NCBI RefSeq assembly: GCF_058153355.1
Contig: NZ_CM177019.1
Reading direction: 5' to 3' (one strand)
Length of the DNA: 64,000 bases
Shown: positions 7,912 through 40,557 of the stretch, piece after piece
Numbering within the stretch: the stretch's first letter is position 1
How the letters are laid out: each line of letters begins with the position of its first letter
Position numbers and translations under genes: made by a program
Notes under the pieces: generated by a model
Told to the model about the DNA's origin: nothing
The model's database searches: none
What the model saw: the letters and a program-made list of their open reading frames with translations, nothing else

Positions 7912-8901
7912 TTAGCCGCCAATGTACGATAAGTTTTGCGTAATACCGGTGTTGTTTTGATGCAGGAAATGGGTCTGTTTCTTCTCCCGCAGCGCCGCTG
8001 AAATACGCGCTTCCAGCGCCTGTTGCTGGGTATCGTCTTCCAGCAGATCGCGCAGGTTAACGCCGCCTTCACCGAACAGGCAGAGATGGAGTTTACCAAT
8101 GGAGGAGACGCGCAGGCGGTTGCAAGTGGCGCAGAAGTCTTTTTCATACGGCATGATAAGGCCAATCTCTCCGGCGTAATCCGGATGACAAAAGACTTGC
8201 GCGGGACCGTCGCTGCGTTGACGTAATTGGTGGATCCAGCCGCGACGCAGTAACTCGTCACGCAGAACCTGACCAGAGATGTGATGCTTACGGAAGAGCT
8301 CGCTGCCCTCGCCCGTTTCCATCAGTTCGATGAAACGCAGCTGGATGGGGCGATGCTGGATCCAGTTCAGAAAGGTGTCGAGTTGGTGATGATTAACATC
8401 ACGCATCAGCACGGTATTGACTTTGACCTTCTCAAAACCGGCCTCAAATGCAGCATCGATCCCTGCCATGACCTGATTGAATTTATCCTGTCCGGTAATA
8501 GCATGAAACTGGCGAGCGTCGAGGCTATCGACACTCACGTTGATACCAGTAAGACCAGCATCACGCCAGTTCGCTACATCTCGTTCCAGACGGTAACCAT
8601 TGGTGGTGACCGCAATCTGGCGGATAGCGTCGTTTTCTCGCACAGCGGCGATGATATCGGTAAAGTCGCGACGCAAAGACGGCTCTCCGCCCGTCAGACG
8701 GACTTTTTCGGTGCCCAGACTGGCGAAGGCGCGCGTAACCCGGCGAATTTCATCGACGGTCAGAAAGCCTTTATTGGTGACGCCGCTCGGTTTGTAGCCA
8801 TCCGGCAGGCAGTAGGTGCAACGGAAGTTGCACACATCGGTAATCGACAGGCGCAAGTAGTAAAACTTACGCGCAAATGCATCAGTCAGTTGTGAAGCCA
8901 T
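7912..8901 (-). CDS. moaA: GTP 3',8-cyclase (radical SAM)
   Basis: 329 aa from MASQLTDAF...; CxxxCxxC radical-SAM motif (CNFRCTYC); ORF-track start at 8982 is an upstream extension. Confidence 0.9.
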
Positions 8902-9060
8902 GTACACCTTTCCAGATACGGGAGGCGAAATCATTTCTTCCTTCGCCCTGGTGGCAATCTTTGTAAGCATTGTCACGGCCAAAGCACCGTATCAGTTGAC
9001 CCAGGTGCAGAGGCTAGAGTGTTTAGTGGTTAAGCCGATACTAGCGTGTAAACAGGATTT
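8902..9060 (-). ncRNA. moaA leader, expected location of the molybdenum-cofactor (Moco) riboswitch
   Basis: Established knowledge that the E. coli moaA 5' UTR carries the Moco RNA motif; motif not verified base by base here. Confidence 0.45.
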
Positions 9061-9237
9061 TTACCATCCACACTTTCGCTATGTAATCATATATATAGCG
9101 TCATGATCGTGCTATTTCGCTACAGAATAAGGGAAAATAGCGGTTTTACTTTGATATACATCATCACGGATGCATAGCGTACATCGTCCTTTAGAGGTAG
9201 AAGAAAATAGTTTGTATCCTCAATATTGGCAGGTTAA

Positions 9238-10206
<969 letters not shown>

Positions 10207-10236
10207 GCGCCTGTGCCGGGGCAGAAAAATACGACT

Positions 10237-10284
10237 GTGACTATGGCGTTTTAAATTATAGAAGGCCATAGTCACCTTTTTTTG
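10237..10284 (+). terminator. Rho-independent terminator after ybhK
   Basis: Inverted repeat gtgactatggc / gccatagtcac followed by a T-run. Confidence 0.6.
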
Positions 10285-10380
10285 GCACAACCCCATTGTT
10301 AGCAGCTCATTTATCTTTCCACTTTCTGGAATTTAGTTTTGCTTCTTGATGTTTCTTGTGCCATGACTATTCTAATAATG

Positions 10381-11598
10381 TTATAATCCCCATGCTTTGG
10401 GAGCCACCGAATCTAAATATTTATCAATATGATGAGAACGAGTATAATCTGCTATATTTTTTGATAAAATGGCCGTGCAATTTAAACCAGAGCCTAATCC
10501 CAGTAGTACCGTTAACCAGTTATCCAGAGCTTCAGATTCAACAATCGAGTTTTCCAGTTCATATGCTTTTAGTAAAAGAGCAGCAGAGTAAATTCTGAGG
10601 ATTTGCGGAGAATTGTATTCCGTTCCTAAACTTGAAGCTGAAGAATATCTTGCGAACACGACAGCAAAACTTATCAGAAGCATTGCTTGTTCCGTTTTAT
10701 TTGCATTTTCCATTCTGCAAGCCTTCATTAAATCTTTATAATGGTTTCCCTTAATATTTAAACAAGACTTATACTTCAATAGTTCGCTAACATTCTTTTT
10801 TTGTTTTATCTTTTTATTTTTACTTAACATTTCGTAACCCGCACCTTCAATAGATTGCGCCTGCAATGAGTAATTATCTATGAGTTTCATAAGAGGCGCA
10901 AAAATTTCATTTAATTTTATTTGCTCATCAATACCATCCATTTTGGTTTGAGAACAAAAACTTTGTGATGCAGTGACAAATGGTTCGTATAGATCACCAA
11001 GCTGAAGGATTTTGAGATAATTTTTTAATAAAATATTATTTTGTGACCGTTTCCATGGGTAGGAAAACACTGGGAATTCGGTCATCAATACGGTATTAAG
11101 ATTAATATCTGCAAGCGAGCACACTTGTTCTGGTGCTGCATATAGATAAAAATGGTCCCAGTCCTTATTTTTAATAGTGGTATCCAACATTTTATTTAAG
11201 GCATTAGATGAAAGACGCATTGCACGATTATTTTGCTGTGCTGAAAACAATACGTACCAAGCATCATCATGATCTTGTCGTTTACGCCATTCAGAGAAGT
11301 CTGGATAATCATTTCCTTCAGTATAAGGTTTAACATCCTTATGTTGTAAATATGTTTTATAAATATTATATGCTTTTTCTGCCAATATATTATTTTTACT
11401 TTTTAGTGCCAGGTCAGTCATCATTACATATGCAGTACTAAATGATAACATTAATGTAGGTTGTTCTGTAAAGCGATCTAAATAATAATTAATCCTCTCT
11501 TCACTAAGATTAAACAAAAAAGAAGAAGAGATACAGCAATCAACTGTAATTAATGACAAAATAAAGTTATCAAATATATTTATATCATCATTTTGCAA
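10381..11598 (-). CDS. Hypothetical protein, 405 aa, in AT-rich island
   Basis: Long ORF in strongly AT-rich DNA absent from the K-12 ybhK-uvrB interval; no motif recognised. Confidence 0.55.
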   Translation of the reverse strand: MQNDDINIFDNFILSLITVDCCISSSFLFNLSEERINYYLDRFTEQPTLMLSFSTAYVMMTDLALKSKNNILAEKAYNIYKTYLQHKDVKPYTEGNDYPDFSEWRKRQDHDDAWYVLFSAQQNNRAMRLSSNALNKMLDTTIKNKDWDHFYLYAAPEQVCSLADINLNTVLMTEFPVFSYPWKRSQNNILLKNYLKILQLGDLYEPFVTASQSFCSQTKMDGIDEQIKLNEIFAPLMKLIDNYSLQAQSIEGAGYEMLSKNKKIKQKKNVSELLKYKSCLNIKGNHYKDLMKACRMENANKTEQAMLLISFAVVFARYSSASSLGTEYNSPQILRIYSAALLLKAYELENSIVESEALDNWLTVLLGLGSGLNCTAILSKNIADYTRSHHIDKYLDSVAPKAWGL

Positions 11599-11711
11599 TA
11601 TATCATTTAATCCCTCTGGTGGTCTGTTAGACGTATAGTATTTTGCTAAGCAATTAATTTCTGATACATCCTTTTTTAATTTTGCAAGGTCATAGATACA
11701 ATTTTTTGTAC

Positions 11712-23235: not shown

Positions 23236-24519
23236 GTGAACACATTTTCAGTTTCCCGTCTGGCGCTGGCATTGGCTTTTGGCGTGACGCTGACCGCCTG
23301 TAGCTCAACACCGCCCGATCAACGTCCTTCTGATCAAACCGCGCCAGGTACCTCTTCTCGCCCGATTCTGTCGACAAAAGAAGCGCAGAATTTCGATGCT
23401 CAACACTATTTTGCGTCCCTGACGCCAGGTGCTGCAGCGTGGAATCCTTCCCCGATTACTCTGCCTGCACAACCTGACTTTGTTGTCGGTCCGGCGGGTA
23501 CTCCGGGTGTAACGCATACCACGATTCAGGCGGCGGTAGATGCGGCAATTATCAAGCGTACCAATAAGCGCCAGTATATTGCCGTGATGCCTGGTGAATA
23601 TCAGGGAACGGTGTATGTCCCTGCCGCTCCGGGTGGAATTACCGTTTATGGTACAGGTGAAAAACCGATTGATGTGAAGATTGGGCTTTCCCTTGATGGG
23701 GGCATGAGCCCTGCCGACTGGCGTCACGATGTCAATCCGCGCGGCAAATACATGCCCGGTAAACCGGCGTGGTATATGTACGATAGCTGCCAGAGCAAAC
23801 GCAGCGACAGTATCGGCGTTCTCTGCTCTGCGGTCTTCTGGTCACAAAACAATGGCCTGCAACTGCAAAACCTGACCATCGAAAACACGCTGGGTGATAG
23901 CGTAGATGCGGGTAACCATCCGGCGGTGGCACTGCGTACTGATGGCGATAAAGTGCAGATCAACAACGTCAACATTCTCGGTCGTCAGAATACCTTCTTT
24001 GTGACCAACAGCGGTGTACAGAACCGTCTGGAAACCAATCGTCAACCACGTACGCTGGTGACGAATAGCTATATTGAAGGGGATGTGGATATCGTTTCTG
24101 GTCGCGGCGCAGTGGTGTTCGATAATACCGAATTCCGCGTGGTGAACTCCCGTACCCAGCAAGAAGCGTATGTGTTTGCACCGGCTACGCTGTCTAACAT
24201 CTATTACGGTTTCCTCGCCGTAAACAGCCGCTTCAATGCTTCCGGTGATGGCGTGGCGCAACTGGGCCGCTCGCTGGATGTTGATGCCAATACCAACGGT
24301 CAGGTGGTGATCCGTGATAGCGCCATCAACGAAGGTTTTAACACGGCTAAACCGTGGGCCGATGCGGTGATTTCCAATCGTCCGTTTGCGGGTAATACTG
24401 GCAACGTTGATGATAACGACGAAGTACAGCGTAATCTGAATGACACTAACTACAACCGCATGTGGGAATACAATAACCGCGGCGTGGGTAGCAAAGTGGT
24501 TGCAGAGGCGAAGAAGTAA
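23236..24519 (+). CDS. ybhC: Pectinesterase-like outer membrane lipoprotein
   Basis: 427 aa; lipobox LTAC after signal peptide; synteny. Confidence 0.85.
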   Translation: MNTFSVSRLALALAFGVTLTACSSTPPDQRPSDQTAPGTSSRPILSTKEAQNFDAQHYFASLTPGAAAWNPSPITLPAQPDFVVGPAGTPGVTHTTIQAAVDAAIIKRTNKRQYIAVMPGEYQGTVYVPAAPGGITVYGTGEKPIDVKIGLSLDGGMSPADWRHDVNPRGKYMPGKPAWYMYDSCQSKRSDSIGVLCSAVFWSQNNGLQLQNLTIENTLGDSVDAGNHPAVALRTDGDKVQINNVNILGRQNTFFVTNSGVQNRLETNRQPRTLVTNSYIEGDVDIVSGRGAVVFDNTEFRVVNSRTQQEAYVFAPATLSNIYYGFLAVNSRFNASGDGVAQLGRSLDVDANTNGQVVIRDSAINEGFNTAKPWADAVISNRPFAGNTGNVDDNDEVQRNLNDTNYNRMWEYNNRGVGSKVVAEAKK

Positions 24520-24535
24520 AAGCGATTAACTTTTT

Positions 24536-24572
<37 letters not shown>

Positions 24573-24623
24573 TCGATGCGATGTCGGGTAGCAGCGATTC
24601 ATTACTGTCTCGCCGCCCCCTAA

Positions 24624-24657
24624 GAACGGTACGTGCGAGTTTCCCCGCATACCGCTC
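24624..24657 (-). ncRNA. Group II intron domain V
   Basis: Minus strand GAGCGGTATGCGGGGAAACTCGCACGTACCGTTC, 34-nt hairpin matching the domain V consensus with compensatory pairing. Confidence 0.75.
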
Positions 24658-24663
24658 AAGCCT

Positions 24664-26406
24664 TTATAAGCCTCCACCTTGTGGGAGACCAGCGTCATTA
24701 CTATGTAGTTGTCGATGGCAGTTGGGATGGAGTAGGACTAAATTGCTCACATCATCGCTACCGCCAAGAGATTTCTTGAGCAAATGATGAACATTCCATC
24801 CTGTATCGCGATTAATCGGTTGCTCACATAAAGGGCAGCGCGATCCTTGCCTTTTCCATATAGCGAGAATCCTTTTCTGCCCCTGTTGGGATTTCTTCCA
24901 TGAGTAGTCCAGCCTTCTTTCGAAGTATGTTTCCCACTCGGGATCATATGGATTTGCCGTTCCCTTTATTTTTATATAGCGATTAATATGGATGTCGCTG
25001 GCCCGGGACAGAACATATTTCCTACCCTCCGGATCGACTCCATAAAATCGACCATGACACATTTTTATTGTCGTGTGGTACTTTCGGAAGATCCATCTCC
25101 GGCCTTTGCCGGGATGTCTCCTTCTGCACCACTGCCAGATTTTGCGCCAGATTTGGTTGTCGACATAGTTAAATGTCTCTGCCGATGCTACATGTTGGTG
25201 ATAGTTTGCCCACCCGGTGATGATTGGATTAAGCAGATTTATTAGCACCCATGCAGGAACCGTTCGGTTACCTTCAATAGTCTCTCTGATCTTGCTAAGA
25301 AATTGTTTAACGTTTTTCTTGGCTGGTCTGATTATGAGTTTTCTACCGAAGCGTCGGACGTGCTGCCCAAGGAAATCAAATCCGTCAGTAATGTGAGTGA
25401 TGACCGTTTTCTCTTCGGATAACGTCAGCCCTCTTTCTGCAAGAAATGATTTCACCAACGGAAGAACATTCTCCTCCAGAAGTTCTTTCGACTTTCCGGA
25501 AATGATGAAATCATCAGCATACCGGACGAAGTGAACCTGATGTTTCCTGAATGTTTTTGAGCGTTTCGGACCAAAGCGATTTTGCAGCAGTCTTTCCAGT
25601 CCATCCAGGGCCATGTTTGCCAGAACTGGAGATATGATTCCTCCCTGGGGTGTACCCGAGAGAGTTTTGCTGAATATGCTTTTTTCGATGATCCCGGCTT
25701 TCAACCAATTACGGAGTATTTGCTTGTCCATAGGAATATTTTCAAGCAGCCACTCGTGGCTAATGTGTTCAAAGCATCCTTTAATATCGCCTTCCAGAAC
25801 CCATTTCGAGGCGTTCCGGGAACTATACATATTACATACCTGTTGAATGGCGTCAGCCGTACATCGCGCTGGTCTGAAACCATAACTGTTGTGATCTGCA
25901 TTAGTTTCCGATACAGGCTCCAATCCCAGCAGATGCAGGGCCTGCATTGCCCTGTCAAGCATGACGGGGATTCCTAATGGTCTTTTCTTGCCATTAGATT
26001 TGGGTATAAAAACTCTTTTTAGCGGTAGGGGCTTGTACCCTTTTCGCCTGAGTTTGAATATCGCTTCCCATTTTGATTCTGGAGTACTCCAGATTTGACC
26101 ATCAACTCCGGGGGTTTTACGCCCGCTATTTTCCGTAACTCGTTTCACCGCCAGTGCTCTGGCGCTGAATGAGCGAACCAGCAATCGTTGCAATCTACCG
26201 ACTGTACGCCATTGCTGGTTACATGCCGCCTTTGCGATTCTTGTCTGTATGGTTTTAACGTGTTGATGGCATTTCTTCCAGTTAATGGAATGCCAACCTT
26301 TTCCGTTGATGACCGCAGTTACATTGTTAGATGTAATTTTCATACATGTCATCCAAAGAAACCTTCGCAGATGTTTCGCAATTAAAGACCAGATGGAAGT
26401 CAGCAC
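24664..26406 (-). CDS. Group II intron-encoded protein: reverse transcriptase / maturase / HNH endonuclease
   Basis: 580 aa; RT motifs incl. YADD (FVRYADDFIISG); maturase X region; C-terminal HNH-like motif (HHLLKKSLGGSDDVSNLVLLHPNCHRQLH). Confidence 0.9.
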   Translation of the reverse strand: MLTSIWSLIAKHLRRFLWMTCMKITSNNVTAVINGKGWHSINWKKCHQHVKTIQTRIAKAACNQQWRTVGRLQRLLVRSFSARALAVKRVTENSGRKTPGVDGQIWSTPESKWEAIFKLRRKGYKPLPLKRVFIPKSNGKKRPLGIPVMLDRAMQALHLLGLEPVSETNADHNSYGFRPARCTADAIQQVCNMYSSRNASKWVLEGDIKGCFEHISHEWLLENIPMDKQILRNWLKAGIIEKSIFSKTLSGTPQGGIISPVLANMALDGLERLLQNRFGPKRSKTFRKHQVHFVRYADDFIISGKSKELLEENVLPLVKSFLAERGLTLSEEKTVITHITDGFDFLGQHVRRFGRKLIIRPAKKNVKQFLSKIRETIEGNRTVPAWVLINLLNPIITGWANYHQHVASAETFNYVDNQIWRKIWQWCRRRHPGKGRRWIFRKYHTTIKMCHGRFYGVDPEGRKYVLSRASDIHINRYIKIKGTANPYDPEWETYFERRLDYSWKKSQQGQKRILAIWKRQGSRCPLCEQPINRDTGWNVHHLLKKSLGGSDDVSNLVLLHPNCHRQLHSNDAGLPQGGGL

Positions 26407-26941
26407 GGTTTCCCGTTAAGGCAAATATTGAACCTCTATCCGCACGATTACAGTCCGGCTTTCGCTTTTTCCATCCTCCTTTACCCGCATTCTCATCAGT
26501 TTGCCTTACGGTGCCCCTGCCACTAGGGCGAGAATTCGGGCTTACCAAGTTCCGACCAACATACAAAGAACGGGTTAGGTTCTGTCTATCCGCCGGGGGA
26601 GTTATTGTCCATGTATTCCCACTACGAACAGGAATAGCCTTACCCCTTACCTTTTGGTGCAAGCCTATCAGCATCTTTGGCTCGTTCTCTGTTACGACGT
26701 TTAACGACAGTTCACTATGTTAACCATACCGCCCAGCCTAGCGCTCTCGCCGCATGATGCTTGTAGCGATCAGGTTTTCTCACGATTAACTGAAGCAATA
26801 TTTGCTAAGCTACATTGTCCCAAGGGCTTCAGACAGAGCCGTTACCAGCTTTGCCTGCCTCAGTAGGCTACAACTAATGGAATAGTTGGTTTTATATAAA
26901 TAATTTATCAAAACAATATGTTGGACGACTTCTTGTCGCAC

Positions 26942-27105
<164 letters not shown>

Positions 27106-27110
27106 GCTTT

Positions 27111-29372
27111 TTACATCTGACGGTTTTTATTGAAGTTAATCAAACTACCCGCCTTGATAATCTCGCGCTCTTCAGCAGTCAGACTTTCCATATAGAGCGT
27201 AATCTCTGTTACCGGCGCATCTTCATGGATCACATAACCTTTAAACGTCGTCCCCGGATTATCCAGCGCCGTTTTAATGCCAGGGATGTAAATGTAATCG
27301 CCCACTTCAAAGTTCGGTGCTTCCGCCATTTGCAGCGGTAACATCCCCCAGTTGATGACGTTAGAACGGTAGCGTTTAGTCGCGTATTCCTCGGCAATAT
27401 TCGCCAGACCGCCAATCACACGCTGGCAGCTCGCCGCCTGCTCACGCGCAGAACCATCGCCTGGTTTCACCGCATAGACCATGCTGCCAATTTCAGTTTG
27501 CAGCGGATCAATATGCTCCTGACCAGCAATCTGCTTAATGCGCGCAAACACCTCTGTCAGCTCGCTGACATTGCCCGCCAGACGCTGATTTTCCAGCTCA
27601 GCAGTCGCTTTACTTCTCCCAACATAACCTGGATCGCGGCGTGACAGGGTAAACTCCGCCAAACCAATCGGATTTGAACGATAAGAAGAGGTTTCACCGG
27701 AAGGAATCAGTTCGTCGGTGGTGGTGACTTCGTCGAGGATCTTCGAGCACACTTTGAGGACGATATTGTCAGTCAGCGCCCCCAATTCCGGCCAGTCTTT
27801 AATGTTCGGTCCGTAAATCAGCGGTTGCTGGGTCGCCCCTTTCACAAAGCCCTGATAAACACGGTTTTTATACGGCGTTACATCGAAGGCGTACTCCGGC
27901 ACGTTGTCCCAGCAATCCAGCTCGCTGGCAGAGGTTAAATAGCCACCGTTTGCCGCAGTCGCAGCGATAGAACGAGCGTCCATCAACGCCACCGCTGACA
28001 TCTGCCCATTGGCTGGCTTAGAGCCTTCGCGGTTCGGAAAGTTACGCGTGGTGTGGCGAATACTCAAACCGTTGTTGATTGGCGTATCGCCCGCGCCAAA
28101 GCATGGGCCGCAGAACGCGGTTCTGATGATTGCACCTGCGCCAATCAAATCTGCTACCACGCCTTTTTTGGCTAAATCCATAAACACCGGCTGTGATGAT
28201 GGATAAACCGCCAGCGAGAAGGTGTCATTGCCACAGGATTGACCGCGCAGCGCATTAGCTGCAGCGATAACGTTTTCATAGTTACCGCCAGAACAGCCCG
28301 CGATAATCCCCTGCTGCACTTTCAGGCGACCATTTTCCACTTTATCCAGCAATGAGAGTTTGGCTTTCCCGTGCGCCACGCGCTCGGACTCAATTTCAAT
28401 CTCACGCAGAATGTCAGTCAGGTTCTGGTTCAGCATGTCGATTTCATACACGTTGCTCGGGTGGAACGGCAGCGCAATCATTGGTTTGATGGCACTCAAA
28501 TCAACGCTGATGCAGCCATCGTAGTACGCCATCGGTTGAGGGTTAAGCTGACAATAATCCTGGCCGCGACCGTGCAGCGCCAGCCAGTTATGGACTTCTT
28601 CATCAGTTTGCCAGACAGAACTTAAACAGGTAGTTTCAGTGGTCATCACGTCAACGCTGTTACGGAAATCGGTAGAGAGCGCTGCAACACCGGGCCCCAC
28701 GAATTCCATCACTTTGTTTTTGACGTAGCCGTTTTTGAACACGGCACCAATGATAGCCAGCGCCACATCCTGCGGCCCCACATACGGCGCAGGTTTTCCG
28801 GTTAGATGCACCGCGACCACGCCCGGATAATCGATATCCCAGGTATCATTAAGCAGTTGTTTTACCAGCTCGCCGCCGCCCTCGCCGACAGCCATCGTAC
28901 CTAACGCACCGTAACGGGTGTGGCTGTCTGACCCGAGGATCATTTTGCCGCCGCCTGCCATCATCTCACGCATATATTGATGGATGACCGCAATATGCGG
29001 AGGCACAAAAATACCGCCATAACGCTGCGCTGCCGATAAACCAAAAACATGGTCATCACCGTTAATGGTGCCGCCGACGGCGCAGAGTGAGTTATGGCAG
29101 TTGGTCAGCACATACGGCAGCGGGAAACGTTCCATACCGGACGCTTTAGCGGTCTGTACAATACCAACAAAGGTAATATCGTGAGAGGCTAATGAATCAA
29201 ACTTAATTTTAAGTTTATCCATATTTCCGGACGTATTATGAGAAGAGAGAATAGACCAGGCAATAGTGCCTTTTTTTGCTTCTTCTTTTTTAATTTCGCC
29301 GGTGAAATGTTCTTCGGCAATTATTTCGTTATTACTGGCGAGAAACACGCCTTTTTCAGATAACTTGATCAT
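27111..29372 (-). CDS. ybhJ: Aconitase-family hydratase
   Basis: ~753 aa from MIKLSEKGV...; ORF-track 761 aa includes an upstream extension; synteny. Confidence 0.85.
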
Positions 29373-29439
29373 CAAATGCTCCAGATATCTGCGCACCGTT
29401 AAGTGCGCAGAAAGATAATAAATGGATATACTCTAAATA

Positions 29440-29545
29440 ATTCGAGTTGCAGGAAGGCGGCAAGCGAGTGAATCCCCAGGAGCTTACATAAGTAAGTGAC
29501 TGGGGTGAGCGAACGCAGATGCAGCACATGCAACTTGAAGTATGA
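29440..29545. repeat. ERIC (IRU) enterobacterial repetitive intergenic element
   Basis: Contains gtgaatccccaggagcttacat and aagtaagtgactggggtgagcg, the sequences used as ERIC primers. Confidence 0.65.
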
Positions 29546-29554
29546 CGAGTATAT

Positions 29555-30988
29555 TTACAGCATGTTCCAGCCGATCAGCATATTCCACCACCACACGCCG
29601 AGGGTGATATGTACCAGGAAGGTTAATATCGTCAGTACCGCACCGACCAACCACCAGGATTTAATATCGTTATAGCCTACGCCGAAGATGACCGGACCTG
29701 CCGCACCGCCATAGTGAGTAACCATGCCGCCATAGGAGTTGGAGAAAAGCAGCGCCAGCGCAGTTAACATTAACGGTGCGCCGGAGACGTTCGCCAGCAT
29801 GGCAAATACCGGTAACATGGCAACGATATAGGCACTACCGGAAGCAAAGAAATAACGCACGATGATGCTAAGGAAAATAATAACGAAGAAAGCTACGTTA
29901 CCATGGCCGTCAAATGCCAGGTTATTTTTAAAGACTTCAGCTAACCATTCGAAGAATTTAACTTTCGATAATAAGGAGCTTAAGCCGATAATACCGCCGT
30001 ACCAGATTAAGGTATTCCAGCCGCCTTTATTTTTCACCACGTCTTCCCAGGTAACGATCCCCAGCAGCAGCATGGTCGCCATAACAACGATTGCCACAGT
30101 GGATTCATCTACCCCGAGCGTTTTACTGAAAATCCAGCCCAACAGCGCCAGCACAAAGACACCGAGCAGCATTTTTTCGCGGATTTTCATCGGCCCCAGT
30201 TCAGCAAGGCCCGCTTTGGCGATGGTTTTGTTATCCACTTTCTTAATTTCTGGCGGATACATGGTGTAAATCACCAGCGGAGTGACCAGCAGCATAATGA
30301 TGCCCGGCAATCCAGCAGCCAGCGCCCATCCACCCCAACTAATTTGTAGGTGCAGAATATCATTGATCATTTTCAGCGCCAGAATGTTCCCCGCCATTGC
30401 GGTAAAGAACATATAGCTGGTGGTTTTAGTGACCATGTAAATGGACATCATCAGGTAATGTCCAACACGACGTGGGCTTTTTTCAGGTTCTGACCCCAAA
30501 GCCACCGCCACGCTGTTGATGATCGGTAACACAATGCCGCCCGCACGCGCGGTGTTAGACGGTGTTGCCGGAGCCAGAACCAGATCGAGGAATACCGTAA
30601 CGTAACCCAGTCCCAGGGTAGTGCTACCAATTTTGCCAATCAATAAATAGGCAATACGTTTACCTAACCCTGTGGTCACAAATGCGGCGCTTAAGGTAAA
30701 CGCCGAGAACACCAGCCAGGTGGTACCTGAAGAGTAACCGCTTAATACGGCGGTGGTCTTAAATGCACCATCGGATAAATTACCGACCACCACCATTGAG
30801 GCAGCAACGGCAATTAACAGTACGACAGGTTCCGGGAAAGGCTTGATAACCAGCCCGACGATTGCTGCCAGGTAAATACCAAAAAGCACCCACGCCAGTT
30901 CGCTTAATCCTGCCGGAGCTGGCATAAAGCCAATAATACATGGGATCGCTAATATCAGAATTAGCTTCCATAACGATTTTTTATTCAT
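29555..30988 (-). CDS. ybhI: DASS-family anion transporter
   Basis: 477 aa polytopic membrane protein; synteny. Confidence 0.85.
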   Translation of the reverse strand: MNKKSLWKLILILAIPCIIGFMPAPAGLSELAWVLFGIYLAAIVGLVIKPFPEPVVLLIAVAASMVVVGNLSDGAFKTTAVLSGYSSGTTWLVFSAFTLSAAFVTTGLGKRIAYLLIGKIGSTTLGLGYVTVFLDLVLAPATPSNTARAGGIVLPIINSVAVALGSEPEKSPRRVGHYLMMSIYMVTKTTSYMFFTAMAGNILALKMINDILHLQISWGGWALAAGLPGIIMLLVTPLVIYTMYPPEIKKVDNKTIAKAGLAELGPMKIREKMLLGVFVLALLGWIFSKTLGVDESTVAIVVMATMLLLGIVTWEDVVKNKGGWNTLIWYGGIIGLSSLLSKVKFFEWLAEVFKNNLAFDGHGNVAFFVIIFLSIIVRYFFASGSAYIVAMLPVFAMLANVSGAPLMLTALALLFSNSYGGMVTHYGGAAGPVIFGVGYNDIKSWWLVGAVLTILTFLVHITLGVWWWNMLIGWNML

Positions 30989-31063
30989 TTAAAATCCTGT
31001 TCTTTCTGTATGACTCATACAGAAGTCCTTTATTGATTGTCCTTATCCTGACAACGAATATTT

Positions 31064-32116
31064 TCAGGGAAGATAAACTTCACCGGAAAATATTTTTCTG
31101 GTTGTCCGAATAACAGATGCGCGTAACGTCGTGGCATCCTGACCTTCATTACTTAAATGAACGTCGAGTGCACCACTGGGGTGTTCAATATTGATATTGC
31201 CGTATCCTACAGAAGGGACGATTTGTCGGGTGACGGTGCCTTCCAATGCACAACTACTGGAAATAGCAATAGCACCGGTTATCGCCAGCGCGCGATGGCA
31301 AGAATGCGGCATAAAATAACGCACATTAATTGCCCCGCCTTTCTGCGCAGGAGAAATAAGCACAGGTTTAGGGATAACCATATTACTGACATCACCTAAG
31401 CCCATTGCTTTACCCGCTTGTAGGCGGATAGATTCAATGCGGGCTAATAATGTTTTGTCGGCATCCAGTTCCGCCGGTAATTCATAGCCTGTTTTACCAA
31501 AATAATCAGCCGGAATAATGACGACTGGCATCGCCATATCGATACAAGTCACTGGAACATCGTCAAAATAATCAATCTGATTATCAGTCGGGAAGACTTT
31601 TCCGGTTTTTGTTCCGGCGGCATTCAGGAAAGTGAGCGCAACGGGTGCGGCAGTACCCGGTACACCGTCAATCCTGGCACTACCTTCATATTCGACAACA
31701 CCATTTGGCGTTTGCACATCAGCTTCGATGAACGTACCTGTATTGACGTTGCGGATACGTACGCGGGTAACTGGCGAAGTCGCTGCAATCAAACCATTTT
31801 CAATGGCGAATGCCCCAACGCCAGACAGCATATTGCCGCAGTTAGGTGTAGTGTCGACACGTTGCTCATGGACGATAACCTGAGCAAACAGATAATCGAC
31901 GTCAGCACGCGGATCGCTGGAACGGCTAATTATGGCGACTTTACTGGTCAGTGGATTACCGCCGCCAATACCGTCAATTTCCAGATCGTTACCGGAACCC
32001 ATAATTGCCATCAATATTTTATCGCGCTGCGTTTGATCTTCGGGTAGATGTTCCGCTAACAGGAACGCGCCCCTCGAGGTTCCACCTCGCATCATCACGC
32101 AGGGTATTTTTTTCAT
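31064..32116 (-). CDS. ybhH: PrpF/AcnD-accessory-like isomerase family protein
   Basis: 350 aa; synteny. Confidence 0.8.
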   Translation of the reverse strand: MKKIPCVMMRGGTSRGAFLLAEHLPEDQTQRDKILMAIMGSGNDLEIDGIGGGNPLTSKVAIISRSSDPRADVDYLFAQVIVHEQRVDTTPNCGNMLSGVGAFAIENGLIAATSPVTRVRIRNVNTGTFIEADVQTPNGVVEYEGSARIDGVPGTAAPVALTFLNAAGTKTGKVFPTDNQIDYFDDVPVTCIDMAMPVVIIPADYFGKTGYELPAELDADKTLLARIESIRLQAGKAMGLGDVSNMVIPKPVLISPAQKGGAINVRYFMPHSCHRALAITGAIAISSSCALEGTVTRQIVPSVGYGNINIEHPSGALDVHLSNEGQDATTLRASVIRTTRKIFSGEVYLP

Positions 32117-32299
32117 AATAATGCCCTCAATTTAAAAACATAACTTATTGCGATATGGTTACATTAAGGGCAAAGCATCTCTAATGACTTTAGCTCAACG
32201 ATTAATAACATTTTTTCATTAATTTAAGTTGGCTAAATGCAGTTAAAATTTTTAACGGCCTGTCATCCAAAATCGTCGCATCCATTTTTCGGAGTAATA

Positions 32300-33252
32300 A
32301 TGAAGCATGAATTATCAAGTATGAAGGCATTTGTCATACTGGCAGAGTCCAGTTCATTTAACAATGCTGCTAAATTACTCAATATTACGCAACCTGCATT
32401 AACGCGAAGAATAAAAAAATGGAAGAGGATTTACATATTCAACTATTTGAGCGTACAACTCGCAAGGTTATGTTAACAAAAGCAGGAAAAAGGTTGCTCC
32501 CGGAGGCGCGGGAATTAATAAAGAAATTCGATGAAACGCTTTTTAATATTCGCGATATGAATGCTTATCATCGTGGTATGGTGACGTTAGCGTGTATTCC
32601 GACCGCAGTATTTTATTTTTTACCACTGGCAATCGGTAAATTTAATGAGCTGTATCCCAATATTAAAGTGCGGATTCTGGAACAAGGCACGAATAATTGC
32701 ATGGAATCGGTGCTGTGTAACGAATCAGACTTTGGCATAAACATGAACAACGTCACAAATTCATCCATTGATTTTACCCCACTGGTCAACGAGCCGTTCG
32801 TGCTGGCCTGTCGGCGTGACCATCCATTGGCCAAAAAGCAGCTTGTAGAATGGCAGGAGTTAGTGGGTTACAAAATGATTGGCGTACGCTCCTCCAGCGG
32901 CAACCGACTTTTGATAGAACAACAGCTGGCCGACAAGCCCTGGAAGCTGGACTGGTTTTACGAAGTGCGTCATCTTTCGACGTCATTAGGACTGGTGGAG
33001 GCGGGACTGGGGATTTCGGCGCTTCCTGGTCTGGCAATGCCCCATGCACCCTATTCTTCGATTATTGGTATCCCGCTGGTGGAACCGGTTATACGTCGGA
33101 CATTGGGGATTATTCGCCGCAAAGATGCCGTGCTTTCTCCGGCTGCAGAACGCTTTTTTGCCTTGCTGATTAATTTATGGACCGACGATAAAGACAACTT
33201 GTGGACCAATATCGTCGAACGCCAGAGACATGCGTTACAGGAAATGGGGTAA
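32300..33252 (+). pseudogene. ybhD: LysR-family transcriptional regulator with a frameshift in an A7 tract
   Basis: HTH region (...NITQPALTRRIKK) ends in one frame (ORF 32237..32476); the conserved continuation MEEDLHIQLFERTTRK... is in the +1 frame (ORF 32419..33252); shift at A-run 32413..32419. Confidence 0.7.
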
Positions 33253-33292
33253 TACACCGGCGCAGGAGAGACTGCGCCGGGTAAATCAGCGG

Positions 33293-34324
<1,032 letters not shown>

Positions 34325-34442
34325 CTAAAATTAGTCGCTTTTGGCGGTGAATGCTGAATTAAAACGCAGAATTTTGTCCGATAGTGGTATCGGTGTACCA
34401 TTCGCGCAGACGAAAATTCTTAACCTTAATCTGGAATACGCC

Positions 34443-35261
34443 ATGACCACACGCGTGATTGCACTCGACTTAGACGGCACCTTATTGACCCCGAAAAAAA
34501 CCTTGCTTCCTTCATCGATAGAAGCCCTGGCCCGCGCTCGCGAAGCAGGCTATCAATTAATCATCGTCACGGGCCGCCATCACGTCGCTATTCATCCTTT
34601 TTATCAGGCGCTGGCGCTGGATACACCTGCTATTTGCTGTAATGGCACCTATTTGTATGATTATCATGCAAAAACAGTACTTGAAGCCGATCCAATGCCC
34701 GTTAATAAAGCCCTGCAACTCATTGAGATGCTGAATGAACACCACATTCACGGTCTGATGTATGTGGATGATGCAATGGTCTATGAGCACCCGACCGGGC
34801 ATGTCATTCGCACGTCTAACTGGGCGCAAACCCTGCCGCCGGAACAGCGTCCGACCTTTACCCAGGTTGCTTCACTGGCCGAGACAGCGCAGGAAGTTAA
34901 CGCAGTATGGAAGTTCGCCCTGACACACGATGACCTGCCGCAATTGCAGCATTTTGGTAAGCATGTTGAACATGAATTGGGACTGGAGTGTGAATGGTCC
35001 TGGCACGATCAGGTTGATATTGCCCGCGGTGGTAACAGCAAAGGTAAACGCCTGACGAAATGGGTTGAGGCGCAAGGCTGGTCGATGGAAAACGTCGTCG
35101 CATTCGGCGATAATTTTAATGATATCAGTATGCTGGAAGCCGCTGGTACAGGCGTGGCGATGGGCAACGCTGATGACGCAGTAAAAGCGCGTGCCAACAT
35201 TGTGATTGGTGATAACACCACCGACAGCATTGCCCGGTTCATTTATAACCACCTGATTTAA
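34443..35261 (+). CDS. ybhA: HAD-family phosphatase (pyridoxal phosphate phosphatase)
   Basis: 272 aa from MTTRVIALDLDGTLL (HAD motif I). Confidence 0.85.
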   Translation: MTTRVIALDLDGTLLTPKKTLLPSSIEALARAREAGYQLIIVTGRHHVAIHPFYQALALDTPAICCNGTYLYDYHAKTVLEADPMPVNKALQLIEMLNEHHIHGLMYVDDAMVYEHPTGHVIRTSNWAQTLPPEQRPTFTQVASLAETAQEVNAVWKFALTHDDLPQLQHFGKHVEHELGLECEWSWHDQVDIARGGNSKGKRLTKWVEAQGWSMENVVAFGDNFNDISMLEAAGTGVAMGNADDAVKARANIVIGDNTTDSIARFIYNHLI

Positions 35262-36320
35262 TCAGGCGGTTATCGAGACACTTTTAATTTGCGCGTATAG
35301 CCATAGGCCAGGTTTGATCGCCAGTTCATCCCTGGCCCACGGGCTTATTCGCGCCCACAGCGTTTTACCGCCGACTTCCAATTCCACTTCCACCTGACCG
35401 TTGTCGTCATAGCTATTGACGACTTTGGCGCGCAGCACATTGCGGATGCTGGTTTGTTGCGGCGGTTGTAAAACCAGAGAAACATCGGAAGCCTGGATGC
35501 GGATGCGTAGCGCGGCTTGCAGCGGTTCATCCAGCTTATTAACCCACAAATGCTGATCGCCCAGCGCCAGCGCGGTCATCGCGTAACGCGGATGATGTTC
35601 CAGTACCGTTACTTTCAGAATGCTGCTTTGTTGCTCTTTCGGCAGCCATGGATTCATCACGCTACTGCCCCAGACTTCTTCCAGCGCACCGAACGCTTTC
35701 ACCTGGCCGTTTTCCAGTACCATCACTCGGTCTGCCAGATGGAGGATCTCATCCAGCGAATGGCTGACATAGAGCATCGGAATGTTGATTTCCCGCGTCA
35801 ACCGTTGCAGATAAGGCAATAGCTCGCGTTTTCGCGGAAGATCCAGCGAGGCCAGTGGTTCATCCAGCAATAATAATTCCGGTGCCGTCAGCAATGCCCG
35901 GCCAATTGCCACACGCTGTTTTTCGCCTCCGGACAGGCTGCCCGGTAAACGGTCAAGCAACGGTTCAATGCCTAAAAGCGCCACCAGCTTATCGAACTGA
36001 TCGACCATGCTTTTCGCCATGCCGTAGCGCAGATTTCCACGTACTTTGTAATGCGGAAACAGCCGCGCATCCTGAAACACATAACCAACGCGACGCTTTT
36101 CTGGCGAAAGGCAGATCCCTTTTTCGGCGTCATTTAGTACCCGACCATTGAGGACAATCCGCCCTTTTTGCGGACGTGTCAGCCCACTGATGGCATTAAT
36201 CAGCGAGGTTTTTCCAGCTCCGGAGACACCAAAGATAGCGGTGATACCATTGGCGGGCAGCGTTTCATTAATGGCCAGGCAATGATTGCCCAACGTCTGG
36301 GAAAAATTCAGTTCCAGCAT
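35262..36320 (-). CDS. modC: Molybdate ABC transporter ATP-binding protein
   Basis: 352 aa; Walker A GVSGAGKT, signature LSGGEKQR. Confidence 0.9.
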
Positions 36321-36322
36321 GA

Positions 36323-37012
36323 TTAGCGCCCCGCCCGTTCACGGCTGATTCTGGCCAGCCATTCAGAAATCAACAGGGAGATCATCGCCAGCGCAATAGA
36401 GATAATGCACAGTCTCGCCGCACCACTTTCCCCGCCGGGGGTCTGGATCAGGGTATACATGGCTGAAGGAATGGTTCGCGTTTCGCCAGGAATGTTAGAA
36501 ACAAAGGTGATCGTTGCCCCAAACTCACCAAGCGAACGAGCGAATGCCAGTACCGTACCGACGATAATTCCCGGTAAGGTCAGCGGTAACGTGATAGTAA
36601 AGAACACGCGCCAGCGCCCCGCCCCCAATGTTCTTGCGGCCTGTTCCAGTTTGACATCAACCCCTTCCAGCGCCAGACGAATTGCCCGCACCATCAACGG
36701 AAACGACATCACGGCGGCAGCGAGAACCGCGCCACGCCAGCTAAAGGCGAAGGTAATGCCAAACCAGTCATACAGACGTTCACCGATAAATCCGCGCCGT
36801 CCCATCGAAACTAATAACAAGTAACCGACGACCACGGGCGGTAACACCAGCGGTAGATGCAGTACGCTGTCGAGCAGAGCTTTGCCCGGAAATGTGCAAC
36901 GCACCAGTAACCAGGCAAAAAAGATCCCAAACGGCAGGCTAAACAGCACAGCCAGGGAAGAAACTTTCAGGCTTAATAAAACCGCCTGCCATTCTGGATC
37001 GGTCAGTATCAT
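36323..37012 (-). CDS. modB: Molybdate ABC transporter permease
   Basis: 229 aa membrane protein; synteny. Confidence 0.9.
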
Positions 37013-37785
37013 TACTTGGTTGTAAATCCGTAGCGTTTAAAAATTTCCGCAGACTGCGGTCCCTTCAGATAATCATAAAATGCTTTTACTGTCGCATTGT
37101 TATGTCCTTCCACAACAGCAACCGGATATTCCACTTTTTTATGTGAATCTTCCGGGAAGGTGGCAACCACTTTTACCCCTTTGCTGGCAACTGCGTCAGA
37201 ACCGTAAACAATACCCAGCGGTGCTTCGTTACGTTCGACCAGCGCCAGCGCGCCACGCACATCTTCCGCCGGAGCCAGTTTCGGGGAGAGCGTATCCCAT
37301 GCGCCCAGTTTTTGCAGTGCTTCTTTTGCATAAATGCCAGCGGGAACATGTTCCGGATCACCAACCGCCAGGCGACCGCCATTCAGCAGCGAAGTCCAGT
37401 TGGTTTTGCTGTCAATGGAGAAATCTTTCTGCTCGCTGGCTTTCGGTGCTACAACAACCAGGCTATTACCGAGTAGAGTCTGACGCGAGGCCGTATCGAT
37501 CGCTTTTTTATCAACCGCATAATCCATCCATTTCTGATCGGCAGAAATAAACAGATCCGCAGGCGCACCCGCTTCAATCTGACGGGCCAGGGTAGAAGAC
37601 GAGGCGAAAGAAGAGACGACATCTACGCCTTTCTCTTTTTTATACTGCGTAGCGATGTCCTGCATTGCGTTAGTCAGTGATGCGGCGGCGAACACCGTGA
37701 TTTTTCCTTCATCTGCCAGTACATTGCCAGCAACAGCGAAAGAGAATGCCGCCCCGGCAAACAAGTTCAACCATTTACGAGCCAT
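37012..37785 (-). CDS. modA: Molybdate-binding periplasmic protein
   Basis: 257 aa with signal peptide; synteny. Confidence 0.9.
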   Translation of the reverse strand: MARKWLNLFAGAAFSFAVAGNVLADEGKITVFAAASLTNAMQDIATQYKKEKGVDVVSSFASSSTLARQIEAGAPADLFISADQKWMDYAVDKKAIDTASRQTLLGNSLVVVAPKASEQKDFSIDSKTNWTSLLNGGRLAVGDPEHVPAGIYAKEALQKLGAWDTLSPKLAPAEDVRGALALVERNEAPLGIVYGSDAVASKGVKVVATFPEDSHKKVEYPVAVVEGHNNATVKAFYDYLKGPQSAEIFKRYGFTTK

Positions 37786-37802
37786 TGGTAACCCCTTAAT
37801 GT

Positions 37803-37830
37803 GACGTTATGTAGGCGACAATATAACGGC
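37803..37830. promoter_or_regulatory. ModE operator in the modA promoter
   Basis: Palindrome cgttat-gtaggcgacaa-tataacg just upstream of modA. Confidence 0.55.
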
Positions 37831-37950
37831 AAGTTCAGAATTTTCCCAGCAGTTATTGCTAACCTTTGTGAGGTTGATGAAAAAAATATCGGCAGGAAAA
37901 GCAGGAAGTTGAGAAAAAGAAAATGCCCGACTAAGCGGGCATTCATAGAA

Positions 37951-38118
<168 letters not shown>

Positions 38119-38228
38119 TCATGAGACTATTCTAACCGCTAAGCACAGAAAAGCACTCCCCTTTTGTGCGGTCAGCTTTGCGTGGCGTTCGTTTTCCGTC
38201 ACAATAAGACTTTTGCCAGGACATTGTT

Positions 38229-39017
38229 ATGCAGGCCGAAATCCTTCTCACCCTTAAGCTCCAACAAAAATTATTCGCCGACCCGCGCCGCATTTCGTTA
38301 CTAAAACACATTGCGCTTTCCGGTTCCATTAGCCAGGGAGCGAAAGATGCCGGTATCAGCTATAAAAGCGCCTGGGATGCCATTAACGAGATGAATCAGT
38401 TAAGTGAGCATATTCTGGTTGAGCGCGCAACAGGCGGTAAAGGTGGCGGCGGCGCAGTACTGACCCGCTATGGTCAGCGACTGATTCAGCTCTATGATTT
38501 ACTGGCGCAAATCCAGCAAAAAGCCTTTGATGTGTTAAGTGACGATGACGCCTTGCCGCTGAACAGCCTGCTGGCCGCGATCTCACGTTTTTCACTGCAG
38601 ACCAGTGCCCGTAACCAGTGGTTTGGCACCATCACCGCCCGCGATCATGATGACATTCAACAACATGTTGATGTCTTACTGGCCGATGGCAAAACACGCC
38701 TTAAAGTCGCGATTACCGCACAAAGTGGCGCACGTCTGGGACTGGATGAAGGCAAAGAAGTGTTGATTCTGCTGAAAGCGCCGTGGGTGAACATTACTCA
38801 GGATGACACTGTCGCCCAGGGGGCCGACAACCAATTGCCGGGCATTATTCGTCATATAGAGCGCGGTGCAGAACAGTGCGAAGTATTAATGGCGCTACCT
38901 GACGGGCAAACTCTGTGCGCCACGGTGCCGATAAATGAAGCAGCTTCTCTTGAACAAGGGCAGAATGCCACGGCTTACTTTAACGCCGACAGCGTGATTA
39001 TCGCTACGCTTTGCTAA
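38229..39017 (+). CDS. modE: Molybdate-responsive transcriptional regulator
   Basis: 262 aa; recognised ModE. Confidence 0.9.
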   Translation: MQAEILLTLKLQQKLFADPRRISLLKHIALSGSISQGAKDAGISYKSAWDAINEMNQLSEHILVERATGGKGGGGAVLTRYGQRLIQLYDLLAQIQQKAFDVLSDDDALPLNSLLAAISRFSLQTSARNQWFGTITARDHDDIQQHVDVLLADGKTRLKVAITAQSGARLGLDEGKEVLILLKAPWVNITQDDTVAQGADNQLPGIIRHIERGAEQCEVLMALPDGQTLCATVPINEAASLEQGQNATAYFNADSVIIATLC

Positions 39018-39084
39018 GCGTGTTGACAATTTGTTATGAAACACGTATCCCTGTCAGTAATCGCTGCAAAAAATGGGATATAAA

Positions 39085-40557
39085 ATGTCATCATTGCAAA
39101 TTTTGCAAGGCACTTTTCGTCTTGGCGACACAAAAACGCTGCAATTGCCTCAGCTAACGTTAAACGCGGGTGATAGTTGGGCGTTTGTCGGTTCTAATGG
39201 CAGCGGGAAATCGGCGCTGGCCCGCGCGCTGGCGGGGGAACTTCCGCTTTTGAAAGGTGAACGGCAAAGTCAGTTTTCCCATATTACTCGTCTCTCCTTC
39301 GAGCAATTGCAAAAGCTCGTCAGCGACGAATGGCTGCGGAATAACACCGATATGCTCGCCCCTGGCGAAGATGACACCGGACGCACTACGGCTGAAATCA
39401 TTCAGGATGAAGTAAAGGATGCACCGCGTTGCATACAACTGGCGCAGCAGTTCGGTATTACCGCCCTCCTCGACCGACGCTTTAAATACCTTTCCACTGG
39501 CGAGACGCGAAAAACCCTGCTCTGTCAGGCGCTGATGTCGGAGCCAGACTTGTTGATTCTTGATGAGCCGTTCGATGGCCTTGATGTTGCCTCACGTCAG
39601 CAGCTGGCTGAGCGACTCGCCTCGTTACATCAGTCCGGTATTACCCTGGTACTGGTGCTCAATCGCTTCGATGAGATCCCGGAATTTGTCCAGTTTGCTG
39701 GTGTGCTGGCGGATTGCACGTTAGCGGAAACTGGTGCTAAAGAGGAACTGCTGCAGCAGGCACTTGTCGCGCAACTGGCGCATAGCGAGCGGCTTGAAGA
39801 TGTACAACTGCCAGAGCCGGATGTGCCTTCAGCACGTCACGCCTTACCCACCAACGAACCGCGCATTGTGCTGAAAAATGGCGTGGTTTCTTATAACGAT
39901 CGCCCCATTCTTAATAACCTTAGCTGGCAGGTGAATCCAGGCGAGCACTGGCAAATTGTCGGGCCAAATGGCGCGGGAAAATCGACGCTATTAAGCCTGA
40001 TTACAGGCGATCATCCGCAAGGTTACAGCAACGATTTGACGCTTTTTGGACGACGTCGCGGCAGCGGCGAAACCATCTGGGACATCAAAAAGCATATCGG
40101 TTACGTCAGCAGTAGTTTGCATCTGGATTACCGGGTCAGCACTACCGTGCGTAATGTGATCCTTTCTGGCTATTTTGATTCGATTGGCATTTATCAGGCC
40201 GTTTCAGATCGCCAGCAAAAACTGGTGCAGCAGTGGCTGGATATTCTCGGCATTGATAAACGCACGGCTGACGCGCCTTACCATAGTCTTTCCTGGGGAC
40301 AGCAACGTCTGGCGCTGATCGTTCGCGCACTGGTGAAGCATCCGACGTTGCTTATTCTTGATGAACCACTACAGGGGCTTGATCCGCTCAATCGCCAGCT
40401 TATCCGCCGTTTTGTTGATGTGCTGATTAGCGAAGGTGAAACGCAATTATTGTTTGTTTCACACCACGCCGAAGATGCGCCCGCCTGTATTTCCCATCGT
40501 CTTGAGTTCGTGCCGGACGGTGAACTCTATCGCTATGTGCTGACAAAAATAAACTGA
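39085..40557 (+). CDS. modF: ABC-type ATPase with two nucleotide-binding domains
   Basis: 490 aa from MSSLQILQGT...; two Walker A motifs (GSNGSGKS, GPNGAGKS). Confidence 0.85.
   Translation: MSSLQILQGTFRLGDTKTLQLPQLTLNAGDSWAFVGSNGSGKSALARALAGELPLLKGERQSQFSHITRLSFEQLQKLVSDEWLRNNTDMLAPGEDDTGRTTAEIIQDEVKDAPRCIQLAQQFGITALLDRRFKYLSTGETRKTLLCQALMSEPDLLILDEPFDGLDVASRQQLAERLASLHQSGITLVLVLNRFDEIPEFVQFAGVLADCTLAETGAKEELLQQALVAQLAHSERLEDVQLPEPDVPSARHALPTNEPRIVLKNGVVSYNDRPILNNLSWQVNPGEHWQIVGPNGAGKSTLLSLITGDHPQGYSNDLTLFGRRRGSGETIWDIKKHIGYVSSSLHLDYRVSTTVRNVILSGYFDSIGIYQAVSDRQQKLVQQWLDILGIDKRTADAPYHSLSWGQQRLALIVRALVKHPTLLILDEPLQGLDPLNRQLIRRFVDVLISEGETQLLFVSHHAEDAPACISHRLEFVPDGELYRYVLTKIN

Follow-up and report, generated by a model that had tools for sequence, protein, structure and literature searches.

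A frameshift in the A7 tract of the LysR-type regulator gene ybhD in a divergent Escherichia coli lineage is very probably a recent, clonally inherited loss of function

YbhD is a minor repressor of Escherichia coli. In the 64,000-nt stretch of E. coli DNA analyzed here (NCBI RefSeq assembly GCF_058153355.1, contig NZ_CM177019.1; hereafter the window), the gene for this LysR-type regulator (32300..33252, plus strand, 953 nt) is broken by a 1-nt deletion at a homopolymeric A7 tract (32413..32419, plus strand). The initial annotation, which had recognized the break, offered three explanations, namely a pseudogene, a slippage-prone (phase-variable) site, or a homopolymer sequencing error, and the locus raises the question of which of these accounts for it. 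The comparisons described below make it very likely that ybhD was genuinely frameshifted by the loss of one A from a run of eight, and that this loss-of-function lesion is recent and clonally inherited.

The sequence at 32400..32429 was TAACGCGAAGAATAAAAAAATGGAAGAGGA, in which the A run comprised exactly 7 bases, and alignment with EC42405 placed the gap at 32420. The open reading frame (ORF) starting from the ATG at 32300 (32300..32476, plus strand) specified 40 native residues, MKHELSS...TRRIKK, exactly as had been described for the HTH-encoding N-terminus, followed by 18 out-of-frame residues (WKRIYIFNYLSVQLARLC) and a stop codon at 32474..32476. The C-terminal fragment was found in a second ORF (32419..33252, plus strand; 277 aa, Met41 to the end), which opens with MEEDLHIQLFERTTRKVMLTKAGKRLL and whose ATG takes as its A the final base of the run (32419). 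A tblastn search with the intact YbhD as query gave two matches, each 100% identical, one covering residues 1-40 (frame 2) and the other residues 39-317 (frame 1); together with the tract length, they bear out the original proposal that this LysR-type regulator gene is frameshifted within the A7 tract. The direction of the shift, however, had to be corrected: the zero-frame codons run from 32420, whereas the downstream ybhD codons run from 32419, 32422 and so on, such that codons 1-40 lie in one frame and codons 41-317 continue in the -1 (equivalently +2) frame, not in the +1 frame. Addition of one A in silico yielded a ybhD ORF of 954 nt encoding 317 aa.

The gene occupies the conserved placement of ybhD, divergent from ybhH-ybhI-ybhJ and beside the intact pgl (33293..34288, minus strand) on its other flank, and the repaired YbhD matched LysR-type models end to end, as expected of an ortholog. 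The two fragments, by comparison, matched only in part. The 58-aa fragment was matched by NCBIfam LysR-type models only over approximately residues 4-45, the best of these matches stopping at residue 40, and the 277-aa fragment matched the LysR-type model only from position ~39 on. In the Pfam search, the 277-aa product carried PF03466 only, whereas intact relatives carry PF00126 together with PF03466; in the window these two domains were split over two frames and did not occur in one polypeptide. The 58-residue product retains HTH helices 1-3 and lacks the wing and the linker helix, and the 277-aa product retains the wing, the linker helix and the effector-binding domain and lacks the DNA-recognition helix. 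The model matches thus place the break within the recognition helix of the winged HTH.

The native start is preceded by a GGAG Shine-Dalgarno sequence (32291..32294, plus strand) with an anti-SD duplex energy of -6.1 kcal/mol, and no Shine-Dalgarno sequence was present upstream of the ATG at 32419, for which the strength was -1.0 kcal/mol at the Met41 ATG versus -6.1 kcal/mol at the native start (5th percentile of window ATGs). We accordingly rejected the 277-aa Met41 product as a functional truncated regulator, since it has neither a Shine-Dalgarno sequence nor a recognition helix. LysR-type regulators are tetramers present at low copy number. Translation from the native start would be expected to end after 58 residues and give a peptide with only part of the HTH, the remaining 277 codons would be left without a ribosome-binding site or recognition helix, and no functional YbhD tetramer would be made.

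The history of the tract was reconstructed from the alleles of related strains. K-12 and the complete E. coli genomes closest to the window, WL297 and 2020CK-00188, carry A6-G-A (ATA AAA AAG ATG), and EC42405, GCA_029095505.1 and GCA_047585895.1 carry A8 (ATA AAA AAA ATG), the AAG>AAA difference being synonymous. The view that one more A restores the gene therefore stood for the nearest intact alleles, which are A8, and failed for most E. coli, which have A6-G-A; likewise, the expectation that other genomes would show a longer tract was borne out by the nearest intact alleles but not by every reference genome. The repaired YbhD, with a lineage-specific Met58, was identical to the protein encoded on at least 24 public contigs and to the YbhD of EC42405, and differed from that of K-12 by 2 residues. 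At the nucleotide level, the window ybhD was identical to those of GCA_029095505.1 and GCA_047585895.1 at 954 positions save for A7 versus A8, as would be expected of a pseudogene derived from them by this single change. The identity with both assemblies extended over 31902..33763, and nearby segments differed by up to ~6%. The EC42405 A8 haplotype showed seven additional synonymous differences from the window ybhD. In the comparison of repaired ybhD with these three A8 alleles, nonsynonymous differences thus numbered 0 and synonymous differences 0-7, which indicates that ybhD was under purifying selection until recently. Furthermore, A7 is nested in the A8 allele group without any other change, which indicates that A8 is the older state and that the A8>A7 contraction is recent.

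As read from these alignments, the allele path is A6-G-A to A8 to A7, with the last step recent. The ancestral codons would have been ATA AAA AAG ATG (Ile38-Lys39-Lys40-Met41); the silent AAG>AAA change, found in a minority of E. coli, would have merged codons 38-41 into an unbroken A8, and one A would then have been lost to give A7, presumably by replication slippage. A route in which the G of A6-G-A was simply deleted was rejected, since two diverged haplotypes in the window's allele group have A8 and A7 sits within one of these with no other change.

The uninterrupted tract is uncommon in the species. Allele counts in complete genomes, obtained with 76-78-nt junction queries, showed that ~97% of E. 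coli lack it and have the interrupted A6-G-A; exact matches to the two A8 queries were confined to 1 and 133 complete genomes, and the window's A7 allele was found in none of 5,339 complete E. coli genomes. An exact-pattern scan for the A7 junction gave no match in species-representative genomes or JGI metagenomes, which speaks to rarity only. For the T58 allele nearest to the window, no Met41-start ORF was on record, and the K-12-type Met41-start ORF was indexed in 754 blocks of the sequence collection. In E. coli, indel rates climb exponentially as runs lengthen (PMC8510543), and the genes are depleted in AAAAAAA (PMC4066793). Seen in this light, the rarity of the tract and its constant length in strains sequenced repeatedly fit a mutational hotspot and not a contingency locus.

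The same break was already known from elsewhere in the species. On a second haplotype background, A8 was found in 133 complete genomes, including those of CFT073, Nissle 1917, ABU 83972 and ATCC 25922, and A7 in 4 records (of 5,015), namely three assemblies of E. coli 536 and that of STEC299, whose ybhD genes are annotated in RefSeq as pseudogenes ("frameshifted"). These two strains resemble the window in having the same tract, the same A8>A7 change, the same 58-aa plus 277-aa architecture, and intact ybhH and ybhI. In contrast to these likenesses, the event is a separate one: the ybhD of 536 differs from that of the window at 21 sites, and a haplotype 21 substitutions away implies that the window's A8>A7 contraction was independent, its own sister alleles still being A8 with no other differences. 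In other public E. coli assemblies, ybhD was also broken near the same point (codons 30-41), by A6>A5 with the G kept and by IS1/IS4-family insertions ~30 nt upstream of the tract; long-read errors or the ends of contigs probably account for some of these recurrent disruptions.

The genes divergent from ybhD are intact in the window. They comprise ybhH (31064..32116, minus strand; 350 aa, no gaps), which belongs to the PrpF family/4-oxalomesaconate tautomerase-like proteins and is the presumed YbhD target; ybhI (29555..30988, minus strand; 477 aa), encoding an anion permease 100% identical to that of EC42405; and ybhJ (27111..29372, minus strand; 753 aa, 99.3% identity, no gaps), encoding an aconitase-family hydratase. 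Between ybhH and ybhD lies an ATTAAT-N11-ATTAAT dyad (32201..32223, no strand assigned), a candidate LysR-type (T-N11-A) operator, which does not vary between K-12 and the window and lies within a strongly conserved intergenic segment: 32117..32264 shows one difference from K-12 in ~148 nt, versus 3.8% for the whole locus. A second near-palindrome, GCAGTTAAAA/TTTTAACGGC, is located at 32239..32259 in the same intergenic region. Deletion of ybhD in K-12 was reported to up-regulate ybhH strongly and to cause a malate-dependent growth phenotype (PMC9068703), which backs the early suggestion that this regulator controls ybhH/I/J. K-12 YbhD would accordingly act as a repressor of the divergent ybhH(I), and its loss here would be expected to result in constitutive expression of ybhH-ybhI-ybhJ; for the window's strain, such derepression is predicted by extrapolation from one K-12 transcriptome study.

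Whether the lesion was fixed by drift or because constitutive ybhHIJ expression is advantageous is a refinement of the same conclusion, and we consider the adaptive version possible but rather unlikely. It would account for the repeated knock-outs of ybhD by A8>A7 (in two lineages), A6>A5 and the IS1/IS4-family insertions, for the intactness of ybhH, ybhI and ybhJ in the window and of ybhH and ybhI in 536 and STEC299, and it would accord with the malate-dependent phenotype of the K-12 deletion (PMC9068703). Nevertheless, the 64 kb contain two more genes with frameshifts, which fits general gene decay or drift, ybhD is intact in 133 of the 137 A8-background genome records, purifying selection had acted on it until recently (nonsynonymous 0 versus synonymous 0-7), and part of the recurrent hits are probably assembly errors. 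The recurrent knock-outs hence hint at selection, and the two extra pseudogenes together with the recent purifying selection favor drift.

A phase-variable switch, in which A8 (ON) and A7 (OFF) would interconvert at high frequency and generate heritable ybhHIJ variation within populations, could draw on the position of the tract early in the ybhD coding sequence, on the occurrence of both A7 and A8 in two haplotype backgrounds, such that OFF arose at least twice, and on the exponential dependence of indel rate on run length (PMC8510543). The length of the tract, however, proved constant wherever strains had been sequenced repeatedly (536, A7 in 3/3; CFT073, A8 in 2/2; Nissle 1917, A8 in 2/2), and A7 was likewise present in all members of the clone to which the window belongs whose sequence was read. 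Nor was there a two-way length spectrum: A8 was present in 133 records and A7 in 4 (two strains) on the second background, and the 76-78-nt query detected no A9 among the complete genomes of that background. The tract is not conserved in the species either, and the ~97% of E. coli with A6-G-A argue that it is not kept by selection. Typical contingency tracts are far longer than the A7 and A8 runs of mismatch-repair-proficient E. coli. Like the contingency loci of Haemophilus, Neisseria and Campylobacter, ybhD has an early homopolymer whose length sets the open frame; unlike them, it shows no within-strain variation and no A9, and its short run is interrupted by G in ~97% of the species. We therefore regard the phase-variable interpretation put forward initially as unsupported and highly improbable. 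An equally improbable extension holds that A8, once created by AAG>AAA, serves as a reversible mutational switch whose OFF alleles (the window's clone, UPEC 536 and STEC299) would be selected via derepression of ybhHIJ, genes linked to the use of tricarboxylates and malate, with reversion or low -1 frameshifting keeping the gene recoverable.

It might also be supposed that the frameshifted gene is recoded yet functional, with -1 frameshifting or an added A yielding enough YbhD for repression. The zero-frame codons ATA AAA AAA TGG do contain an A_AAA_AAA heptamer exactly in phase at 32413..32419, and the wild-type ...RRIKKMEE... would be restored exactly if the ribosome slipped by -1 or RNA polymerase introduced one more A. 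Moreover, IS elements exploit A_AAA_AAA, which in E. coli is more shift-prone than background (PMC4066793), and slippage can rescue ORFs disrupted at A runs (PMC1088944). Against this, no stimulatory structure was detected, the downstream 81 nt being weaker than shuffled controls (z = +1.2) and the 101-nt context giving z = -0.3, and no GGAG- or AGGA-like stimulator was present in the sequence before the heptamer. The two-frame layout was not conserved among homologs either: the inspected relatives, barring the pseudogene alleles, have a single 317-aa ORF, and a single ORF is found in >5,000 genomes. Programmed frameshifting at ybhD was rejected on the basis of the missing stimulators and the unconserved layout, and the E. 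coli frameshift-motif survey, in its main text and accessible supplements, does not list ybhD. Without stimulation, A_AAA_AAA frameshifting in E. coli is just above 0.1% versus a background of ~0.05% (PMC4066793). As for transcription, bacterial slippage becomes appreciable near nine A/T (PMC1088944, PMC5009743), and the run of 7 in the window is shorter than the ~9 (sometimes 8) associated with it.

With an unstimulated efficiency of only ~0.1-0.5%, the leak would be expected to remain well under 1%, an output unlikely to repress. Because there is neither a frameshift stimulator nor a Shine-Dalgarno sequence before Met41, the ybhD A7 allele is effectively null, and the probability that recoding sustains repression appears very small. 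The comparison with established systems is in line with this. As at dnaX and the -1 sites of the IS1/IS3 family (A_AAA_AAG/A_AAA_AAA), ybhD has an in-phase X_XXY_YYZ at which a -1 shift would join the ORFs (PMC4066793), but it differs from them in having no hairpin, pseudoknot or upstream Shine-Dalgarno sequence and in its unconserved two-ORF layout. Similarly, one added A in the mRNA would correct the frame as in slippage-rescued genes (endosymbiont poly(A) genes, Shigella mxiE, and the 9A/9T genes of Baranov et al., 2005), but the run of 7 is below the ~9 nt required for appreciable slippage (PMC1088944, PMC5009743). In the intact ybhD of K-12, WL297 and 2020CK-00188, codons 38-40 form a dnaX-type A_AAA_AAG in phase, at which a -1 slip, as read from the sequence, would end after ~12 codons.

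As to sequencing error, the A7 lesion was reproducible in public sequence data, albeit in data sets that possibly overlap with the window's own reads. A contig assembled from run SRR31441161 was 100% identical to the window over 9,725 nt, A7 included, and NCBI assembly GCA_043012465.1 was 100% identical over 7,053 nt, again with A7 and with no protein called at ybhD. In these two the tract was read directly from the sequence; the overall tallies of three runs and two assemblies are look-up counts, and they may include the reads behind the window itself. The 277-aa Met41 ORF was located on 3 run-assembled contigs, and the clone's ybhJ contig was found in 3 runs. Between the window and the much older run SRR8656992, one of the three, 3 SNPs were counted over 16.9 kb, indicating a distinct isolate of the same clone.

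Within the window, the lengths of 57 of 59 six-mer and all 13 seven-mer homopolymers were equal to those in EC42405, and four 8-mers were called; these concordant lengths together with the four 8-mers exclude blanket undercalling of homopolymers. Among the five 8-mers common with EC42405, two were contracted in the window, both within genes, a pattern that undercalling would produce as well, although the second of these contractions recurs in the slightly different isolate SRR8656992. One-base deletions accounted for all of the frameshifted genes, 3 of ~53 common with EC42405. Apart from ybhD, these were a 765-aa effector-like gene of the pentapeptide-repeat/SopA_C-domain type (10384..12677, minus strand), with T8>T7 at 11730..11736 relative to EC42405, and a hypothetical 550-aa gene (13161..14812, plus strand), in which the loss of an A near 13995 (GGGAG>GGGG, not a homopolymer contraction) left ORFs of 299 and 255 aa. 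Both lesions were also found in SRR8656992, which identifies them as inherited mutations and not noise.

A homopolymer sequencing or assembly error, in a strain truly A8 with an intact ybhD, would explain why the sister alleles differ by a single base in an 8-mer (a classic miscall), why a second 8-mer (T8>T7) is shortened inside a gene, and why some public assemblies with A6>A5 at the same tract look error-laden, one of them with broken neighboring genes, but it is very improbable, given that A7 recurs in both the SRR31441161 contig and GCA_043012465.1, that the Met41 ORF lies on 3 run-derived contigs and 3 runs represent the clone, that the other two frameshifts recur in the different data of SRR8656992, that the four other 8-mers and all 7-mers were called concordantly, and that in strain 536, with three separate assemblies, the same A7 allele is beyond doubt. 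Of the explanations first offered, the evidence thus prefers the pseudogene, with A7 recurring in an assembly and a run contig and its length stable.

The closest complete E. coli genomes were 98-99% identical at the ybhD region, ~97% further downstream and 97-98% overall, and K-12 was ~96% identical at the ybhD locus; the window is from a divergent, poorly sampled E. coli lineage, possibly one with a raised pseudogene load. Divergence from GCA_029095505.1 and GCA_047585895.1 along 26942..39252 was uneven, with one SNP besides the tract indel in ~31902..35777 and as many as 32 differences in a 500-nt stretch of ybhJ (28442..28941), a mosaic that suggests recombination blocks. A ~2.3-kb group II intron (24583..26889, minus strand), situated between ybhC and ybhJ, was absent from EC42405, GCA_029095505.1 and GCA_047585895.1; it was matched by Rfam RF02012 (domains 1-4) at 26742..26889 and RF00029 (domains 5-6) at 24583..24659, and contained a reverse-transcriptase/maturase ORF (24664..26406, 580 aa) with YADD and HNH motifs. 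Directly beside the insertion point, an Rfam match to naRNA4, a REP-derived nucleoid-associated RNA, was located at 26947..27017 (minus strand), and repeats of this type are probably behind the many BLAST places per genome obtained with the 8000..32000 query. The segment 3075..5169 was unalignable with EC42405, whose SUKH-4 immunity and adjacent small genes are absent or replaced in the window; a DUF3969-like ORF in this segment was only 61% identical.

Taken as a whole, the window ybhD is an ordinary homopolymer-slippage pseudogene of a LysR-family regulator. It shares with other enterobacterial pseudogenes of this type the single-base contraction of a run, an intact allele otherwise identical, and the want of any compensating change; nothing essential sets it apart from them, its run having first been made by the synonymous AAG>AAA.

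The correct annotation of ybhD in this genome is hence a frameshifted pseudogene, neither an assembly error to be "polished" nor a phase-variable gene, and beyond this the finding is of little importance. A silent AAG>AAA change created a mutational hazard in the form of A8, after which the gene was inactivated at least twice independently. The window's clone, UPEC 536 and STEC299 are natural ybhD knockouts with ybhH, ybhI and ybhJ intact, and they could help to decipher this poorly characterized operon.
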